A stretch of DNA of 64,000 nt, taken from positions 30,997 through 94,996 of the forward strand of contig URFZ01000003.1 in NCBI GenBank assembly GCA_900547165.1. Reading direction: 5' to 3'. A program made the position numbers and the translations under genes. This stretch comes from an uncultured Eubacteriales bacterium (lineage in GTDB: Bacteria > Bacillota > Clostridia > Oscillospirales > UBA644). Below the pieces are notes generated by a model. That model was not told where the DNA came from. It saw nothing but the letters and a program-made list of their open reading frames with translations, and did no database searches. Below, piece after piece: positions 17,745 through 47,864 of this stretch (its first letter is position 1; every line of letters begins with the position of its first letter).

Positions 17745-17773
17745 TTGAAAACGAATAAAATATGTGCTATAAT
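17745..17773 (+). promoter_or_regulatory. Strong promoter of the large ncRNA
   Basis: TTGAAA (17745-17750), a 17-nt spacer, then extended -10 TGcTATAAT (17765-17773). Three A-tracts precede it (17706-12, 17724-29, 17736-40), UP-element-like. Confidence 0.75.
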
Positions 17774-17779
17774 GTGTTC

Positions 17780-18415
17780 TACGATGATGCGGTATTCTAG
17801 TCGGTTTTTGCAACGACCAGGGTGGGGCTAAAAATCCACCGAAGGGCATATCTGTGAAACTTCTGGTGCTTGCTTCTTACGCCCAGTCTGGGGTGGGTGC
17901 TGGATGGGGGACGCGAGAGCGTCCTATGGCTTACGGGCAACCGTAATGGCATACGATCCTGTTCCGTTTGCCGTGGAGACCCGAACTTGTGCCTTATTGC
18001 GTGGTACGACTCGGGATAAAACCTGCAAGGCGGTGTAACGCCTGTTCCGAAGGAACTTTGCAAAAACATTTTTTTGAAATGGGGATTACGCTGTGTGCAG
18101 CCGTAGCCTGTCTTGAGTGGGTGCGGTGAATGTTCGATCAGAAGCAAACTGCGGCAGCAGACTTGCTTTATTGCGGATTGAAACCGTTCTTGCAAAAGAG
18201 ACTAAGCGTTGACTTAAACCGTTGAGGAAATCTCCTAGACCGTATACGCTCAAAGGATTGCAGTATGTACTGAGTGGCGATCAAGTTAAAATCGCAGTGA
18301 TGCGGTTTTCGTGGGCTTCAAAGGGAAACCGCCCGTTTGGCGACAGCGGGTAGAACATGGGGAAACCTACTTGACCTAAGACATAAGATTAACTTTGGGC
18401 GTTATCATCGTATAT
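17780..18415 (+). ncRNA. OLE-class (ornate, large, extremophilic) RNA candidate, ~630 nt
   Basis: The gap has no credible ORF.
- Terminal closing helix: ACGATGAT (17781-88) pairs with ATCATCGT (18403-10), followed by a T-run.
- Many local hairpins, with GNRA loops only in the + orientation: GGACGC-GAGA-GCGTCC (17909-24) and TTACGG-GCAA-CCGTAA (17931-46).
- Further hairpins: GTTCC-GAA-GGAAC (18044-56) and GCGGTTT/AAACCGC (18302-08 / 18326-32).
- It lies directly upstream of a 4-TM protein and tlyA-nadK-argR-recN, the neighbourhood known for OLE RNA.
Boundaries are +/-10 nt. Confidence 0.8.
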
Positions 18416-18458
18416 TTTTTTGATTAAATAACACTCGTATAATTACAGGAGAAACAAA

Positions 18459-19118
18459 ATGAAAGAAGATGTCTCTTCGGATTTAGACCGAAGTAACAAG
18501 TCCGAATCAGAGGAAAACGAGGACAAAAAAAATAAAGACGTCCAGCCGCAGGAACAGAAAAAGCAGAAAAAAGAAAGTCTTTTCAATTGGAAATGGACGG
18601 CAAGAATATTTCTTTTAACTTTTTCGATATCGATTGGACTTTCGCTTTTTTCCGAATCGGTTTCGGAAGAACTTCCGGTATGGGTCGCATTTATCATTCT
18701 TTGCGTTTTTGTTTTCATAGGTATTCTTTTTGATATAATAGGAACGGCTGTCATGTCCGCCGATCCCAAGAGCCTGAACTCAATGTGCACCAGACAGGTT
18801 AAAGGCGCAAAAAAAGCGCTTAAATGGGTGCAGAGTGCAGATACCGTCGCTAACTTCTGCAACGACGTAATGGGCGATATTTCAAGCGTATTGAGCGGTT
18901 CCGTCGGCAGTGTTATAGCAATAGGGCTTGCAGATACTTTCAATTTCAGCAAACTTATATCCGCAGTCGTTGTAACTGCATTGACATCTGCGATAACAGT
19001 TGCAGGTAAATCTTTCGGCAAAAACTTCGCAATGAAAAAAGCGAATGACATAATTTTCTTTTTCGCAAGACTTTTAAGCGTCTTCGGCGAGGAAAAAAGT
19101 AAGAAAAAGAAGAAATAA
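18459..19118 (+). CDS. oapA: OLE-associated membrane protein A candidate (4-TM)
   Basis: 219 aa. A charged N-terminal ~40 aa is followed by four hydrophobic helices rich in small residues, then a Lys-rich tail. It starts 40 nt after the RNA with a good RBS (caggaga). Its stop overlaps the tlyA ATG (TAATG). Confidence 0.7.
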   Translation: MKEDVSSDLDRSNKSESEENEDKKNKDVQPQEQKKQKKESLFNWKWTARIFLLTFSISIGLSLFSESVSEELPVWVAFIILCVFVFIGILFDIIGTAVMSADPKSLNSMCTRQVKGAKKALKWVQSADTVANFCNDVMGDISSVLSGSVGSVIAIGLADTFNFSKLISAVVVTALTSAITVAGKSFGKNFAMKKANDIIFFFARLLSVFGEEKSKKKKK

Positions 19119-32281: not shown

Positions 32282-32340
32282 TTGACAAGAGCTGCTGTAA
32301 CAATTATAATTACAGTAGAAAATGTAATAGTTTAATTACA
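32282..32340 (+). promoter_or_regulatory. Consensus promoter with two TGTAA-N8/9-TTACA palindromic operators (candidate Rrf2 sites)
   Basis: TTGACA (32282-87), a 17-nt spacer, then TATAAT (32305-10). Box 1 TGTAAcaattataaTTACA (32296-32314) spans the -10. Box 2 TGTAAtagtttaaTTACA (32323-32340) lies at about +6 to +23. Confidence 0.6.
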
Positions 32341-32361: not shown

Positions 32362-32808
32362 ATGAAAAGGTTGTTTTTATTTTTTACTGTTCTGTCTGTT
32401 TTTCTTCTGTCTTCGTGCGTGATACCGTCCCGTCAGGAGAAAACGGAAAGCGCGAAAAACACCGAGGCGTCCGTCGGGACGACCGAAAAGGAAAAGGGTA
32501 TGTATAAAAAGATATCTGCAAAGGAAGCTTATGATATAATGTCCGCCGGCGGCGTTACCGTTGTGGACGTGCGCACGAAGGAGGAATACGACGAGGGGCA
32601 TATCAAAGGCGCTGTTCTTGTCCCGAATGAAACAATAGTCAATAATGCTCCGTCGGAACTGCAGGACAAACAAGCCGTCTTGCTTGTTTACTGTCGAAGC
32701 GGGCGGAGAAGCCACGACGCAGCAAATAAACTTTTAGCGTTGGGTTATGAAAATGTTTATGATTTCGGAGGAATAATCGACTGGCCGTATGAAAAGGTTA
32801 AGGATTGA
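32362..32808 (+). CDS. Rhodanese-domain lipoprotein (sulfurtransferase-like)
   Basis: Lipobox LLSSC. Rhodanese motifs YDEGHIKGAV and the active-site loop CRSGRRS. Confidence 0.85.
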   Translation: MKRLFLFFTVLSVFLLSSCVIPSRQEKTESAKNTEASVGTTEKEKGMYKKISAKEAYDIMSAGGVTVVDVRTKEEYDEGHIKGAVLVPNETIVNNAPSELQDKQAVLLVYCRSGRRSHDAANKLLALGYENVYDFGGIIDWPYEKVKD

Positions 32809-32823
32809 GGAGAAGAAATACTT

Positions 32824-33267
32824 ATGAACAGTTCATTCAGTATTGCGGTTCACGCGCTGGTTTATCTCAATCACATGGAAAGAGTTCTCAGCAGCGAAGA
32901 GCTTGCGCAGAACGTATGCACCAATCCCGTGCTTGTGAGAAAGGTTATGTCCAAGCTGAAAAAGGCGGGCATTGTGACCACAAAGGGCGGGAAATCCGGG
33001 GGCTATGCCTTTGCCTCGGACGCCGAAACACTTACTTTGGAAACGATAGCCGAGGCGATTGACGCGCATTTTGTCGGTTCTCCGTGGCGCAGCGGGGATA
33101 TGGATAAAGAGTGTCTTATCTCGTCGGGAATGGGCTCGGTGATGGAAAACATCTGCGCCCGGCTTGACGAGCATTGCAGAAAAAGTCTGCGCGGTATCAC
33201 CGTGGCAGATATTGACAGAAAAATACTGAAACGCGGAAATGAGCCGTCGATAGATGAAAAAGCGTAA
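32824..33267 (+). CDS. Rrf2-family transcriptional regulator
   Basis: FSIAVHALVYLNHMERVLSSEELAQNVCTNPVLVRKVMSKLKKAGIV is the Rrf2 winged-helix pattern. Confidence 0.85.
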   Translation: MNSSFSIAVHALVYLNHMERVLSSEELAQNVCTNPVLVRKVMSKLKKAGIVTTKGGKSGGYAFASDAETLTLETIAEAIDAHFVGSPWRSGDMDKECLISSGMGSVMENICARLDEHCRKSLRGITVADIDRKILKRGNEPSIDEKA

Positions 33268-33508
33268 CGGGAAAATTATATTTCTTCTCCTTTATATTGC
33301 GTTCGCCGTTCTCGGCGCCGTCGGAGGATTTTTGCTTTACCGCTTTGTCTGATGCGGGTCGGGAGGCTGTTCCATAACGGGAAACCCGTATTTCAGCACC
33401 GTTATCGGCGCTGTTTTCGGAATTCTTGTCGGAATACTTATCCATCCGTCGAAAGCCTTCTCGACCGATGACAAAAAGAACGGGGATTCCGACGGGAATA
33501 CCCCCTGA
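33254..33508 (+). CDS. Small two-TM membrane protein with C-x4-C motif, interrupted by in-frame TGA at 33350-33352 (Sec/readthrough candidate or pseudogene)
   Basis: Not in the ORF track. MKKRNGKIIFLLLYIAFAVLGAVGGFLLYRFV-[TGA]-CGSGGCSITGNPYFSTVIGAVFGILVGILIHPSKAF...NTP* is read in one frame. Each half holds one hydrophobic helix. The second half has no start codon of its own. Confidence 0.45.
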
Positions 33509-33544
33509 AAACAACAGAAATACGCATCTTTCGGAGGAAACGGC

Positions 33545-34624
33545 ATGAAACACTTATCAAAATTTTGTATACTGTTGCTTTCTGCTTCTCTTTTTTTATC
33601 GGGTTGCGGTATGAATTCAACTGACAATAAAAAAAATGCGGAGATTGAGCGTATGGATTTTTCGAATGAACGTGAAAATGTGATTTATCTCGCCGGCGGC
33701 TGTTTTTGGGGAATTGAGCATCTGATGCAGTCAATCCCCGGAGTTATCGACGCCGAAAGCGGCTATGCAAACGGAACCTGCAAGGCAGACGCCGAGTATA
33801 AGACGGTATGTTCCGGTGAAACGGGATTTCGAGAAACCGTGAGAGTGGAATATGACCCCAAAAAAATCAGTCTTGACGCATTGTTGCTTGCTTATTTTTA
33901 TGTTATAGACCCGACAAAACAAAACCGACAGGGAAATGACGTCGGAAGTCAGTATCAGACGGGCATATATTATACAAACGATAAGGCACGGGAAACCGCG
34001 CAGCGGATATACGACCTTGAAAAAAGCCGCCGCAATGAGTTTTTTGTGGAGTTCGGACCTCTTTTGAACTTCTATCCGGCAGAGGAATATCATCAGAATT
34101 ATCTGGAAAAAAATCCGAACGGCTACTGCCATATACCACGCGGAGAAATCGAATTATTTTCAAAAATGAAGATTGACCCGGGCGATTATAAAAAGCCCGC
34201 AACAGAAGCGATACGCGAAAAGCTGACGGCGGAGCAGTACCGCATCACACAGGAAAACGGAACGGAACGAGCCTTTAACAATGAGTTCTGGAACAAGTTT
34301 GAAAAGGGGATTTATGTTGATGTCGTGACGGGCGAGCCACTCTTTTCCTCCGCGGATAAGTTTGAAAGCGGCTGCGGCTGGCCGGCATTTTCCAAACCCA
34401 TTGAAGCGCCTGCCATTGTGGAGAGGCAGGATAACAGCTACGGAATGAACCGCACGGAGGTTCGCAGTCGGGCAGGAGATTCACATCTGGGGCACGTGTT
34501 CACGGGAGATCCCGATTCTCCGAACGGCGTGCGCTACTGTATAAACAGCGCCGCTCTGCGTTTTATTCCGTATGAAAAAATGGAGAGCGAAGGTTACGGA
34601 TATCTGCTGTCCGTTTTTGATTAA
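33545..34624 (+). CDS. msrAB: Exported bifunctional methionine sulfoxide reductase MsrA-MsrB lipoprotein
   Basis: Lipobox FLSGC. MsrA motif GGCFWGIEH. MsrB motifs ([19 protein letters not shown]). Confidence 0.9.
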
Positions 34625-34642
34625 AAAACTCAGGAGCCGTTT

Positions 34643-35296
34643 ATGGAATTTGTTATTACTTTTTTGGAGGGATTTATCTCGTTTATATCGCCCTGTATGC
34701 TGCCTATGCTGCCTCTGTATATCTCATATTTCGCCGGAGGGGCGGACAAAAAGCACAAGGTGTTTTTGAGAGCATTCAGCTTTATACTCGGTTTTACCGT
34801 TGTGTTCAGTCTTCTCGGACTTTTTGCTGGCACGCTCGGCGCTTTTCTGAAAGAATACAAAACGGTTGTCAACATCGTGGGCGGACTGCTGATTGTTGTT
34901 TTCGGGCTGTCTTATCTTGAAGTTATCAAACTGCCGTTTTTCAAAGGAATGCAAAGCGGACGGACGGCGAATACCGTTGTGTCGGCGTTTCTGTTCGGCA
35001 TTATTTACTCAGTCAGCCTGACGCCCTGCATAGGCGCGTTTCTCGGTTCGGCGCTGGCGCTTGCCGGAACATCCGGGACGGCAGTTAAAGGTGTTCTTTT
35101 GCTTGTGACTTATTCTCTCGGTCTCGGAGCGCCGTTTTTACTGTCCGCGCTGTTGATTGAGAAATTGAACACGGCGTTTACCTTTATTAAAAAGCACTAC
35201 CGCGTTATTAACATCGTTTGCGGCTGTTTTCTGATTCTTGTCGGCATTCTTATGGCGTGCGGACTTATGGACGCAATAACGGCTGTTTTTTCATAA
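34643..35296 (+). CDS. ccdA: CcdA/DsbD-family thiol-disulfide electron transporter
   Basis: Six TM helices with the two conserved Cys-Pro contexts (FISPCMLPMLPLY and SLTPCIGAFLG). Confidence 0.9.
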   Translation: MEFVITFLEGFISFISPCMLPMLPLYISYFAGGADKKHKVFLRAFSFILGFTVVFSLLGLFAGTLGAFLKEYKTVVNIVGGLLIVVFGLSYLEVIKLPFFKGMQSGRTANTVVSAFLFGIIYSVSLTPCIGAFLGSALALAGTSGTAVKGVLLLVTYSLGLGAPFLLSALLIEKLNTAFTFIKKHYRVINIVCGCFLILVGILMACGLMDAITAVFS

Positions 35297-35439: not shown

Positions 35440-36042
35440 ATGAAGTCCGGATTAAAGTATATTCTTTTCGCGGTCTCGGCCGTGGCTCTGGTTGCGGTCG
35501 CCGTTGCGGCATACAGACATTTGTCGTCTGTAACGCCCGCGCCTTCCGACCCTCCGACAAGCGCGACCTCGCCGTCATCCGTAGATGAAACCGTAAAACC
35601 CGGTGCGTCGGGTAAAGAGAAGACCGCGCCAGATTTCACCGTAACCGACGCAAAAGGCAGGAATGTTACGCTGTCGGAAAGTTTCGGCAGACCCGTTATT
35701 CTAAACTTTTGGGCGACTTGGTGTCCTCCTTGCCGAAGCGAACTTCCCGCCTTTGAAAAACTGTACAAGAAGTATCAGGCGGAGGTCACGTTTATGATGA
35801 TAGATCTCAGCGACGGTTACAGAGAAACGCCTGACGCGGTAAAAAAATTCCTTTCCGAAAACGGCTACACTTTTCCCGTATATTACGACTCTGAAGTCAG
35901 CGCGGCAAAAGCATACAACGCTTTGTCGATACCTTTTACTGTCGCAATCGATAAAAACGGAAACGTCAAAAAAACGCACCTCGGCGCAATGAGCGAGACG
36001 GCGCTTGAAAGTATGATAAAGTCGGTGATTGAGGCAAAATAA
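35440..36042 (+). CDS. Membrane-anchored thioredoxin-like thiol-disulfide oxidoreductase (TlpA/ResA family)
   Basis: N-terminal TM anchor, then VILNFWATWCPPCRSELP (WCPPC active site). Confidence 0.9.
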   Translation: MKSGLKYILFAVSAVALVAVAVAAYRHLSSVTPAPSDPPTSATSPSSVDETVKPGASGKEKTAPDFTVTDAKGRNVTLSESFGRPVILNFWATWCPPCRSELPAFEKLYKKYQAEVTFMMIDLSDGYRETPDAVKKFLSENGYTFPVYYDSEVSAAKAYNALSIPFTVAIDKNGNVKKTHLGAMSETALESMIKSVIEAK

Positions 36043-36260
36043 AAGTCACCTTATGTTAAACGGCTTATTGAAAAAAATTCTCCGGTTGCCGCCGTTTCAG
36101 AGAAAACTCATCGGATTTATCTGAAAAGCGTTGACGGTTTTCGGACTCTTACGGTTTTGTGACAACTTTCAATCGTTTTTTCGGTGAATACAGCGTTCTT
36201 TTGTGCTATGATTATATTGCGGAAAGGAAATCCGCAAATAAATTCAAAGGAGCACTTGCC

Positions 36261-37067
36261 ATGAAAAACAAAAAAACTATTCTCTCAACCATTCTCGCGC
36301 TTGTCCTTGCGATGAGTTTCATTATCGCTTCGGCGGCGGTGATTTCCGCAAATGACAACAAATCGTCCGAGCCGCAGAAAAAAATCTGTGTTGCCGCAGG
36401 CGAAACTTCCGACAGCTGCGGAACGCAGTCTTTTGAAAACTTTGTAAAAGGTCTGTCCTCTTTAACCGAGCAGGAAAAAGCGACGCTTATTGCCGACCTT
36501 GAACAAATCGAGACGCTTGAGAAGAAGATCGACGAGATCTATGCCCGCATGACTGACGAAAACGCGGACAGTCTTTATGATGAGATCAATGCCGTTGACA
36601 GCAAACTCGCTGCGGTACTCGAAAGAAACGCAAAACTTTGGGAGCGCGTCAACGATGAGTACGACGAAAAAATTGCCGCGAAAGAACCGGATATGACCCT
36701 TGACCCCGCCGAAGAGGACTTTAACGGTCATTGCACGGAGAAAGAGGAAACCTATGAGGAATCCATTAAAGGGATGACTTCTCTGACCGAGCAGGAAAAA
36801 GCGGCTCTCCTTGCCGACCTCGCGGAAATCGAAGCTCTTGAAAAAAGAGTTGACACTCTTTATGCAAGCATAAACGACGAAAACGCAGACCGTCTTTATG
36901 ATGAAATCGACGCTCTTGAGGACAAAATTGCGGAAATTCTCGAAAGAAACGCAGAGCTTTGGGATCGTGTCGATGCCGAATACGACGAAAAAATTGCGGC
37001 AAATGAAAAGGATATACCCTTTGATCTGAACGAAGAGGAATATTCTGTCTGCGAAAAAAGAAGATAA
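36261..37067 (+). CDS. Secreted acidic coiled-coil protein made of two ~107-aa tandem repeats
   Basis: ATG 36261 with RBS aaaggag. Signal peptide MKNKKTILSTILALVLAMSFIIASAAVISA. The repeats SLTEQEKA(T/A)L(I/L)ADL...ERNA(K/E)LW(E/D)RV(N/D)(D/A)EYDEKIAA occur twice. The upstream part of track ORF 36159 has no support. Confidence 0.75.
   Translation: MKNKKTILSTILALVLAMSFIIASAAVISANDNKSSEPQKKICVAAGETSDSCGTQSFENFVKGLSSLTEQEKATLIADLEQIETLEKKIDEIYARMTDENADSLYDEINAVDSKLAAVLERNAKLWERVNDEYDEKIAAKEPDMTLDPAEEDFNGHCTEKEETYEESIKGMTSLTEQEKAALLADLAEIEALEKRVDTLYASINDENADRLYDEIDALEDKIAEILERNAELWDRVDAEYDEKIAANEKDIPFDLNEEEYSVCEKRR
36444..37064 (+). repeat. Intragenic tandem duplication, period 321 nt (2 copies)
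   Basis: The anchor accgagcaggaaaaagcg occurs at 36465 and 36786. The DNA units appear to be mostly identical by eye. Boundaries are approximate. Confidence 0.8.
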
Positions 37068-46525: not shown

Positions 46526-47653
46526 TCAAGTCCCCAACGGCAATTTTTTATAAATTTTTAAGCACTTTATCATATAATCCACCTCTTCAACCGTGTTGAA
46601 AGGCGAAAAACTCACACGGACCACGCCCGATTCGGTCGTTCCGAGTTTTTTGTGCGCAAGCGCCGAGCAATGAAATCCGCCGCGAACACATATTCCTTTT
46701 GAACTAAGGTATGAAGTCACTTCTTCCGAATGCGACCCCTGCACATTAAACGCAACAGTCCCCACCGAATCGGCAGAAGAATAAAGTGTGATATTTTTGA
46801 GTTTTTTCAGTTCATTTATTGCGTGCCGAATAAGTGATTTTTCATAAAATGAATTATTGGGATTTCGTCGCAAAAATCTGATACCCTCGCAAAGTGAAAT
46901 TATAGCGGGCGTTGCAACCGTGCCGCTTTCAAGAGCCTCGGGAACAATCTCAGGTTGCAAAAGATTGAGAGATTCCGTTCCCGTTCCACCGTAAAGCAAC
47001 GGCGACGGGGGAGTTTTTCTGAACAGTAAAAGTCCAGACCCCTGTATGCCGAACAAGCCTTTATGTCCGGAAGTGCATAAATAATCAATTTCAGCATTTT
47101 TCATATCAATCGGAATATGTCCCGCAGCCTGCGAAGCGTCTGTTCCGAATAAGATACCGTTTTTATGAGCAATTTGTGCAAGAGGACGCAAGGGAAGTAC
47201 TTTGCCCGTGACATTTGAAACAGCCGTAGGGAAGATGAGCCTTGTTTCTGGACGGATAAGCGCCTTGACAGACGCTTCAATATCGTTTGAATCGGCAATA
47301 TCAAACGTTACACCTCGTGATGAAAGAGCTGTCAGCGGTCTCGTTACGGAATTATGCTCCATGTCGGACACTATAACGTGATCGCCTTTGAAAAGAAGTC
47401 CGAAAAGCAAGAGATTTATCGATTCCGTCGCATTTTTGGTGAATATAACATTTTCAGGTTCGCATCCAAAATATTCGGAAATGACCTCGCGTGCTTCAAA
47501 AATTCGTTCTGCCGCTTCAAAAGAAAGACTGTGTCCGCTTCGCCCCGGGTTTGAAGTGTTCGAGCGCAGGTTTCTGTTAACGGCACTCAGAACGTTTTCC
47601 GGTTTCGGAAAAGTCGAAGCGGCATTGTCAAAATAAACAGGGAAGTCAATCAT
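46526..47653 (-). CDS. Class-V aminotransferase-fold PLP enzyme (cysteine desulfurase / selenocysteine lyase-like, short N-terminus subgroup)
   Basis: YFDNAASTFPKP..NPGRSGHSLS..FTKNATESINLLL..SGHKGLFGIQGSG (PLP-Lys context). Confidence 0.8.
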   Translation of the reverse strand: MIDFPVYFDNAASTFPKPENVLSAVNRNLRSNTSNPGRSGHSLSFEAAERIFEAREVISEYFGCEPENVIFTKNATESINLLLFGLLFKGDHVIVSDMEHNSVTRPLTALSSRGVTFDIADSNDIEASVKALIRPETRLIFPTAVSNVTGKVLPLRPLAQIAHKNGILFGTDASQAAGHIPIDMKNAEIDYLCTSGHKGLFGIQGSGLLLFRKTPPSPLLYGGTGTESLNLLQPEIVPEALESGTVATPAIISLCEGIRFLRRNPNNSFYEKSLIRHAINELKKLKNITLYSSADSVGTVAFNVQGSHSEEVTSYLSSKGICVRGGFHCSALAHKKLGTTESGVVRVSFSPFNTVEEVDYMIKCLKIYKKLPLGT

Positions 47654-47864
47654 AGTTTTTTATTCCGTGAACGGGAATTCCTCTTTGCTGAAACAGTTTT
47701 GTTGTTCTCGGCAATTCCGAACCGTCGACGACAATGCACCAAGAACAGCCGAAAGCCGACGGTTGACGTGATTTTTCCGCATAACATTTTATATTATTTG
47801 CAAAAAGCAATTTTTTCGCACGCTGTAAGTGTGTCGCAGAATTTATCAAAATACACTTTTTCAT
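47646..47864 (-). CDS. DUF3343-like small protein (putative S/Se carrier-like fold)
   Basis: 72 aa. The pattern CILINSATHLQRAKKLL...GCSWCIVV resembles the DUF3343 family. An 8-nt overlap couples it to the class-V enzyme gene. Confidence 0.6.
   Translation of the reverse strand: MKKCILINSATHLQRAKKLLFANNIKCYAEKSRQPSAFGCSWCIVVDGSELPRTTKLFQQRGIPVHGIKNYD

Follow-up and report, generated by a model that had tools for sequence, protein, structure and literature searches.

In the 64-kb stretch of Bacillota DNA analysed here (the window), the small interrupted reading frame that lies between an Rrf2-family regulatory gene and msrAB is very probably an allele of a DUF6132-family gene that has been inactivated by a nonsense mutation. 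It is no selenoprotein gene but the allele of an ordinary pseudogene, still young, from a known, uncharacterised family, and comparison of the same locus in many independent assemblies shows the in-frame TGA that splits it to be real, inherited and derived, and to occur in a single clade of one species. The case is a cautionary one: an in-frame TGA beside a cysteine codon, a thiol-redox operon and a hairpin that can be drawn downstream together mimic a selenoprotein gene, and it is the alignment of homologues, together with population data, that exposes the look-alike as a plain nonsense allele.

The interrupted gene and its operon

The small ORF (33254-33508, plus strand) consists of 32 codons, a TGA, a further 51 codons and a second TGA. 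Its first half reads MKKRNGKIIFLLLYIAFAVLGAVGGFLLYRFV up to the premature TGA and its second half CGSGGCSITGNPYFSTVIGAVFGILVGILIHPSKAFSTDDKKNGDSDGNTP up to the TGA at 33506-08, and the residues that span position 33 or lie downstream of it in this frame include CGSGGCSITGNPYFSTVIGAVFGILVGILIHPSK. Re-reading of the sequence bore out the description of the frame given in the original prediction: the frame opens with an ATG at 33254, its first 14 nt being shared with the end of the Rrf2 ORF; a single transmembrane helix falls in each half (Kyte–Doolittle analysis of the joined product gave two hydrophobic segments, at about residues 8-26 and 45-63); and the second half (33353-33508), when searched for an in-frame start codon of its own, proved to have none. 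The sole ATG in its vicinity, at 33352, overlaps the premature TGA and opens another frame, which leads to an unrelated ORF of 39 aa.

The small ORF is part of an operon-like row of genes on the plus strand, in the order rhodanese, Rrf2 regulator, small ORF, MsrAB, CcdA and TlpA-like thioredoxin (Table 1), and the perfect sigma-70 consensus that precedes them is probably the operon promoter. The rest of the operon is intact in the window (rhodanese, Rrf2, MsrAB, CcdA and the TlpA-like thioredoxin), and msrAB has its own GGAGG. Among the NCBIfam models, the Rrf2 regulator comes nearest to HypR, at 82.9 bits, i.e. below the cut-off of 180. A CcdA/thioredoxin/MsrAB extracytoplasmic module can be recognised by the co-location of ccdA, a gene for a membrane-anchored thioredoxin-fold protein and an exported msrAB, and the predicted products show this combination to be present here.

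Table 1. The small gene, its operon and the direct repeat associated with deletions in related strains (positions in the window)
Feature	Position	Strand	Basis or remarks
Perfect sigma-70 consensus (TTGACA-17-TATAAT), 3' of two terminator-like hairpins	32282..32310	+	Consensus match only
Rhodanese-domain protein, N-terminal signal or lipoprotein-like segment	32362..32808	+	Pfam PF00581, E = 4.4e-18
Rrf2-family regulator	32824..33267	+	Pfam PF02082, E = 2e-24
5' part of DUF6132-family gene	33254..33352	+	32 sense codons: basic N-terminal tail and TM helix 1, to premature TGA
Proximal direct-repeat copy, deletion start in related strains	33349..33357		CTGATGCGG in window; CGGCTGCGG in GGC alleles
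Premature opal stop, codon 33	33350..33352	+	Homologues have Gly here (clade I strains GGA, intact clade II strains GGC)
3' remnant	33353..33508	+	51 codons: C-x4-C-x-I-T-G-N-P loop, TM helix 2, acidic/basic tail, native TGA
MsrA-MsrB fusion, lipoprotein-type N-terminus (LSGC)	33545..34624	+	Pfam PMSR and SelR; NCBIfam PRK14018, E = 2e-124
Distal direct-repeat copy	34368..34376		CGGCTGCGG, MsrAB codons S274-G275-C276-G277 region
CcdA/DsbD-type transmembrane electron transporter	34643..35296	+	Pfam PF02683, E = 4e-19
Membrane-anchored TlpA/Etrx-like thioredoxin (WCPPC)	35440..36042	+	Pfam AhpC-TSA, Redoxin, Thioredoxin

Family membership and the residue at codon 33

The closest matches of the joined product were full-length proteins of 84 aa (P0001 and its cluster, at 90% identity; for the 5' part of the small gene, too, the identity to P0001 is 90%), together with relatives of 75 aa (P0010 and P0011), and all of these have glycine where the window has TGA. 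A profile built from P0001, P0010 and P0011 gave 1047 matches at E ≤ 0.001 among 1.84 billion cluster representatives, and the best 150 of these were aligned with the three starting proteins. In this alignment of 153 members, the position of the TGA is occupied by glycine in 152 and by tryptophan in the remaining one (P0067), and never by cysteine. Both loop cysteines are invariant, and the loop motif of the family as aligned, G-C-x3-4-C-[PA]-I-T-[SG]-N-P, takes the form G-C-x4-C-x-I-T-G-N-P in the intact 84-residue protein.

The family had been tentatively named as DUF6132, with glycine at the aligned position, and this was right: 44 of 46 sampled relatives from the profile search matched PF19628 at E ≤ 0.01 (best E = 6e-11). 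The window ORF belongs to a divergent branch of DUF6132, since its own scores (12.6 bits with cysteine at the stop, 12.9 bits with glycine) and that of its intact homologue P0001 (17.3 bits) all lie below the gathering threshold of 23.2, yet 44 of the 46 relatives match the family model. Like DUF6132 proteins, it has two transmembrane helices flanking the conserved loop, and its motif is complete but for Gly33, where the stop stands. The structure predicted by AlphaFold for P0001 from the family alignment is a helical hairpin (helices at residues 6-33 and 45-63, loop at 34-44) of modest confidence (mean pLDDT 67.8), in which Gly33 forms the end of helix 1, immediately before the first cysteine. 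A profile search of the PDB returned no solved relative, no NCBIfam model matched the small protein or its relatives, and a search of the literature on DUF6132 found no relevant publication.

The intact gene specifies an 84-residue two-helix membrane hairpin with the cysteine motif in the short loop between the helices, and since both the N- and the C-terminus are basic, the positive-inside rule would put the ancestral cysteine loop on the outer, extracytoplasmic side. In other species, a TlpA-like thioredoxin is encoded within 4 kb in 35 of 80 DUF6132 loci and a rhodanese in 13 of the 80, the rhodanese being sometimes fused to the DUF6132 domain (as at L069). To judge by genomic context, the intact protein may be a thiol- or sulfur-handling partner of the CcdA/thioredoxin/MsrAB repair system. 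Points that may be of use for research on DUF6132 are the invariant G-C-x3-4-C loop, the approximately 1000 cluster representatives, the frequent thioredoxin and rhodanese neighbours, and the rhodanese fusions. In a peptide-pattern scan of genome contigs, with a pattern that excludes the window's own GFLLYRFVGC, relatives of at most 59% identity were seen in metagenome-assembled genomes of Clostridiales and Oscillospiraceae, and many in Bacteroidota.

The stop codon and further lesions among strains

Syntenic loci, i.e. contigs encoding allelic products, were taken from many independent human-gut metagenome assemblies. Codon 33 is GGA, in an intact gene, in L002-L006 and L130-L134, whose identity to the window is about 96%; it is GGC, again in an intact gene, at loci whose flanks are about 99% identical to the window (L139-L144); and it is TGA, in an allele identical to the window's, at L001, L008, L009 and L099. 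The proposal that a single change from GGA to TGA would explain the stop is supported by syntenic GGA strains that differ at this codon by one base, and GGA or another sense codon in orthologues, which had been named beforehand, together with a lack of selABCD and tRNA-Sec, as the mark of a pseudogene or an error, is what the syntenic strains carry.

Between those two possibilities the population data are decisive. A sequencing or assembly error, in which the true base at 33350 would be G, is easily imagined when TGA is one base away from GGA, and its probability is nevertheless practically nil, because the identical TGA is found in at least four other independent assemblies (ENA QUAN23, ENA ZHAN15, Logan SRR30557166 and ENA UOJG01016805), which come from differing studies and pipelines. 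In the collection, 54 blocks index the truncated ORF of 32 aa and 132 others index variants of it, and the TGA occurs on further haplotypes as well, at 11 more loci (L117-L126 and L129). Of the earlier paired suggestion of a nonsense pseudogene or an error, then, the first part stands, with glycine in 152 of 153 homologues and GGA or GGC in syntenic strains, and the second falls. In neighbour-joining trees of the flanking sequences, clade I (all GGA) was set against clade II, in which TGA alleles are interleaved with GGC-intact and deletion alleles. As expected of a pseudogene, the premature stop is derived within the species (syntenic loci have GGA or GGC, and TGA is nested with intact GGC), and the simplest history would be a single G-to-T change at a GGA codon, inside clade II.

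Further disabling lesions are present downstream of the stop, as is also usual in a pseudogene. In L001 the TGA is accompanied by a 1-nt deletion 20 nt downstream, and the 11 additional TGA loci have all suffered a deletion of 1020 bp (junction GTC TGA TGC GG/C TGG, the slash marking the join), which removes what follows in the small gene and the greater part of msrAB, as far as Gly275 of MsrAB, and fuses codon 33 in frame to the MsrAB glycine codon at 34370-72. The 32-aa product of 10 of these 11 loci (P0224) is indexed in 132 blocks. The direct repeat at which the deletion starts is a perfect 9-mer (CGGCTGCGG) in the GGC alleles, and a deletion of the same size, with another junction (GTC GG/C TGC GGC TGG), has given rise in L092 and L093 to an in-frame fusion of 116 aa, comprising helix 1 and the C-terminus of MsrB. 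L127 and L128 combine the TGA with I9K and G77W and with zero synonymous changes, msrAB being split as well in L128. Other strains, L092 and L093 among them, have lesions of independent origin: L135-L138 have GGA at codon 33 and a TGA at codon 43, and their msrAB has a Cys-to-Tyr change in the lipobox together with a frameshift. Two further products of the locus are altered as well, P0003 by a C-terminal frameshift and P0002 by loss of the first cysteine.

Counted by contig, alleles of all three kinds, intact, stop and deletion, are common. All three substitutions specific to TGA alleles are non-synonymous; L64H, which is lineage-specific and present in the window's 3' remnant, occurs in TGA alleles only, among the alleles compared. 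Against clade I, pN/pS was 0.25 for the small gene and 0.15-0.19 for neighbouring genes, a contrast that is not significant, substitutions being few, and the clade I loci used had been chosen because their protein sequences are identical, so that pN among them is necessarily 0.

The 1-nt deletion in L001 bears on another possible reading of the locus, as a functional split gene that yields helix 1 and helix 2 as separate peptides, with re-initiation for the latter at the ATG overlapping the stop (cTGATGc). The deletion brings this ATG into frame with helix 2 (product P0004, MRVGRLF-ITGNPYF...), which is what such an arrangement would need; but in the window itself the ATG is out of frame and gives the unrelated 39-aa peptide, and the re-framed P0004, found on 3 contigs only, lacks both invariant cysteines. 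We find a split gene barely credible, and return to inactivation as the preferred reading.

Several independent lesions have struck the small gene and the adjacent msrAB across this one prevalent human-gut Bacillota species, and the two genes are being lost repeatedly. DUF6132 and extracytoplasmic MsrAB have been inactivated in the species by two different stops, by frameshifts and, at a single short repeat, by two or more deletions. Such repeated inactivation suggests that a gut bacterium of this species can dispense with the DUF6132–MsrAB module, or even that the module carries a cost there.

Recoding, consequences of the stop and known systems

In most of the TGA alleles that retain them, the 51 downstream codons are still open, as is expected of a young pseudogene and equally of a recoded gene. 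Were the strains that keep the downstream half to decode the UGA, either as a newly born selenoprotein with selenocysteine in place of the glycine next to the first cysteine or by efficient readthrough, their DUF6132 protein would still be of full length, though altered in its chemistry; we regard this as highly unlikely.

The first explanation originally offered was of this kind, namely that the TGA is decoded as selenocysteine by means of the downstream hairpin, creating a U-C-x4-C redox centre. It had the attraction that the TGA adjoins a cysteine codon within a thiol-redox operon, that a hairpin can be drawn from 1 nt after it, and that a pair of genes resembling those for a cysteine desulfurase and a Se_S_carrier protein is located 13 kb away. 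The discovery of selenoproteins, however, rests on homology between cysteine and selenocysteine and on a SECIS element (PMC13326102), and the UGA here aligns with cysteine in none of the 153 family members, the position being glycine in 152. The caution that accompanied the original prediction, that selenocysteine normally aligns with cysteine and that a glycine here would favour mutation, error or readthrough, was thus sound, and selenocysteine as such found no support in the analysis.

The hairpin fared likewise. The complementarity TGCGGGT/ACCCGTA does exist, and it pairs when a context of 46 nt is folded (−14.4 kcal/mol), but the significance attached to it as a SECIS-like element was not upheld: for the 46-nt context z = −1.18, with 26 of 200 shuffles folding equally well; when 61 nt are folded, z = −0.65 and the minimum-energy structure lacks the proposed stem; and none of the three contexts around the TGA that were folded could be distinguished from shuffles. 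Both the sequence and the fold of the hairpin are identical in a GGA allele (L130), and the complementarity is the coding sequence of the conserved C-G-S and N-P-Y residues, older than the TGA. Searches of Rfam around the site, at the gathering threshold and at E ≤ 10, gave no SECIS family, nor anything beyond noise.

The UGA form also failed to recur in other lineages of the family. When 241 million metagenome records were scanned for TGA-C-x2-G-x(0-1)-C-x-I-T-x-N-P, a pattern that fits 69 of the 153 family members at the protein level, 23 matches were obtained, of which only one, that of L099, is a DUF6132 gene, and it has the window's own allele; among these records, TGA was found at this position in no further lineage. 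Loss of the downstream half in TGA strains, by frameshift or deletion, likewise argues against a selenoprotein. None of selA, selB, selC (tRNA-Sec) and selD was found within the 64-kb window or the fetched flanks, and the one tRNA in the window is for proline. The pair comprising a class-V enzyme and a DUF3343 protein, to which attention had been drawn, is indeed present, but both members score below the curated cut-offs of the selenium-linked models: the class-V enzyme (46526-47653) reaches 340.7 bits on TIGR01977 (cut-off 377), and the adjoining ORF of 72 aa reaches 23.7 bits on Se_S_carrier (cut-off 25). At most, the pair hints weakly that selenium is handled, and it is silent on the insertion of selenocysteine. 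Taking these points together, we judge selenocysteine at codon 33 to be extremely unlikely.

A leaky stop would be a less elaborate matter: near-cognate reading of UGA, for example by tRNA-Trp, would yield a little full-length protein, and the allele would be a hypomorph and not a null. UGA is the leakiest of the bacterial stop codons, P0067 naturally has tryptophan at this position, so that tryptophan may be tolerated, and the window keeps the frame open beyond the stop. On the other hand, there is no sign of programming and no conserved stimulatory structure; TGA followed by T, as it is here, is not known to be a weak termination context; TGA strains have later lost the downstream part; and a basal level of 1% or less holds for any UGA. 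We judge this reading of the allele as a hypomorph very unlikely, though some basal readthrough may occur. An alternative genetic code, with TGA read as glycine (code 25) or as tryptophan (code 4), was also considered, and is out, as TGA terminates 15 of the 48 ORFs of at least 200 aa in the window; the small gene itself ends in TGA.

Under the preferred explanation, inactivation by a nonsense mutation, a single G-to-T change would have converted the almost invariant Gly33 codon from GGA to TGA. Translation would then end at codon 32, after helix 1, leaving the 51 downstream codons as an untranslated remnant, and the peptide of 32 residues would presumably be non-functional. Expression of msrAB would be expected to continue despite the stop, because it has its own GGAGG ribosome-binding site, and ccdA and the thioredoxin gene are probably still expressed too. 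The allele of the window represents one early stage in loss of the module from the species.

When set beside DUF6132 as represented in Pfam, the window copy has the same length, the two hydrophobic helices, the loop motif and the neighbourhood of thiol and sulfur genes, but a stop replaces the invariant glycine; and the Clostridia sub-branch that includes it differs from other DUF6132 proteins in having a longer acidic/basic C-terminal tail. With bacterial selenoprotein genes (for example fdhF, grdA/B and those for selenocysteine-containing thiol oxidoreductases) it shares a TGA in frame, surroundings of thiol-redox genes and a hairpin that can be drawn just downstream. Unlike them, it has its TGA aligned with glycine, its hairpin is non-significant and predates the TGA, and the TGA is limited to one intraspecific clade in which the downstream part is decaying.

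In the operon of the window, genes for a rhodanese, for an Rrf2 (HypR-like) regulator and for a DUF6132 protein come on top of the streptococcal CcdA/Etrx/MsrAB2 arrangement; to our knowledge, these three are absent from the streptococcal systems that have been described. In its remaining genes the operon resembles the extracytoplasmic CcdA/Etrx/MsrAB2 pathway by which methionine sulfoxide is repaired in Streptococcus pneumoniae (PMC3914529) and S. gordonii (PMC7034828), with the same CcdA-type transporter, anchored thioredoxin-fold protein and lipoprotein-type MsrA-MsrB.

Deletions and other lesions in related strains

Many strains carry a 1020-bp in-frame deletion (loci L092, L093, L117-L126 and L129) between two copies of a 9-nt repeat, one lying in the small DUF6132 gene (window 33349-33357) and the other in msrB (34368-34376). 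Two distinct junctions were found, one of a TGA type and one of a GGC type, the latter giving a 116-aa fusion in which TM helix 1 is joined to the MsrB C-terminus. Because the junctions differ, this implies that the deletion arose independently two or more times, or arose once and was accompanied by recombination.

Further lesions were encountered in the small gene itself. At L001, a strain locus with the same TGA allele, the counterpart of window 33254-33508 (L001 9903-10156) has lost one nucleotide (CC to C at window 33372/3), which brings an ATG overlapping the TGA (cTGATGc) into frame with TM helix 2. The reframed ORF (P0004, 51 aa), found on three contigs, lacks both Cys residues, and probably represents chance decay. 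Loci L135-L138 (syntenic to window 32362-34900) are a lineage of their own, in which Gly33, the residue before the first Cys of the DUF6132 loop, is kept, and a change of ACG GGA to ACA TGA creates a stop at codon 43; the msrAB gene of these strains is frameshifted and has Tyr in place of the lipobox Cys.

The Rrf2 regulator and other features of the window

The nearest NCBIfam model to the Rrf2 regulator encoded just upstream of the small gene is that of the redox-sensitive HypR (82.9 bits, under the cut-off of 180), a likeness that would fit an oxidant-responsive operon.

Against TIGR01977, a model of the cysteine desulfurase family (cut-off 377), the class-V aminotransferase scored 340.7 bits, and against SclA (cut-off 525) it scored 252.8 bits; the 72-aa ORF upstream of it reached 23.7 bits with Se_S_carrier/DUF3343 (cut-off 25). 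This pair is adjoined by cdaA, ybbR and a tyrosine recombinase gene, and there are no sel genes among its neighbours.

A repeat protein with the pattern …SLTEQEKA.LIADL..IE.LEK…DENAD.LYDEI… varies in size between strains (302, 313 or 333 aa), and Pfam gave no convincing match for it. Elsewhere, an ORF for a CNNM/DUF21-type membrane protein lies directly 3' of an OLE RNA; because of this position it is a candidate for an OLE-associated protein, a role that its place would suit. By its OLE RNA, the organism belongs to the Bacillota.

Coordinates of the features discussed
Feature	Location	Strand	Basis
OLE (ornate large extremophilic) RNA, full-length	window 17768-18424	+	Rfam RF01071, 364.8 bits, E = 1e-103
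Membrane protein ORF, CNNM/DUF21-type TM domain	window 18459-19118	+	domain match
Rrf2 regulator	window 32824-33267	+	NCBIfam comparison
302-aa protein, two long internal repeats	window 36159-37067	+	
Class-V aminotransferase and 72-aa ORF	window 46526-47864	-	model scores, all sub-threshold
DUF6132-rhodanese fusion (example)	L069 3956-4420		

The DUF6132 family in other species

Among 153 DUF6132 representatives, the only one with a residue other than Gly before the first Cys is P0067, which has Trp (…YRCKWCGMGNCAITGN…). Some Bacteroidota, such as Capnocytophaga stomatis, encode the DUF6132 hairpin and a rhodanese domain in one fusion protein, with the rhodanese part at the C-terminus. Thioredoxin-fold proteins are frequent neighbours of DUF6132 in other species, as are ORFs that, by their look, we take to resemble OsmC, TauE/SafE, DUF2892 and DUF302.
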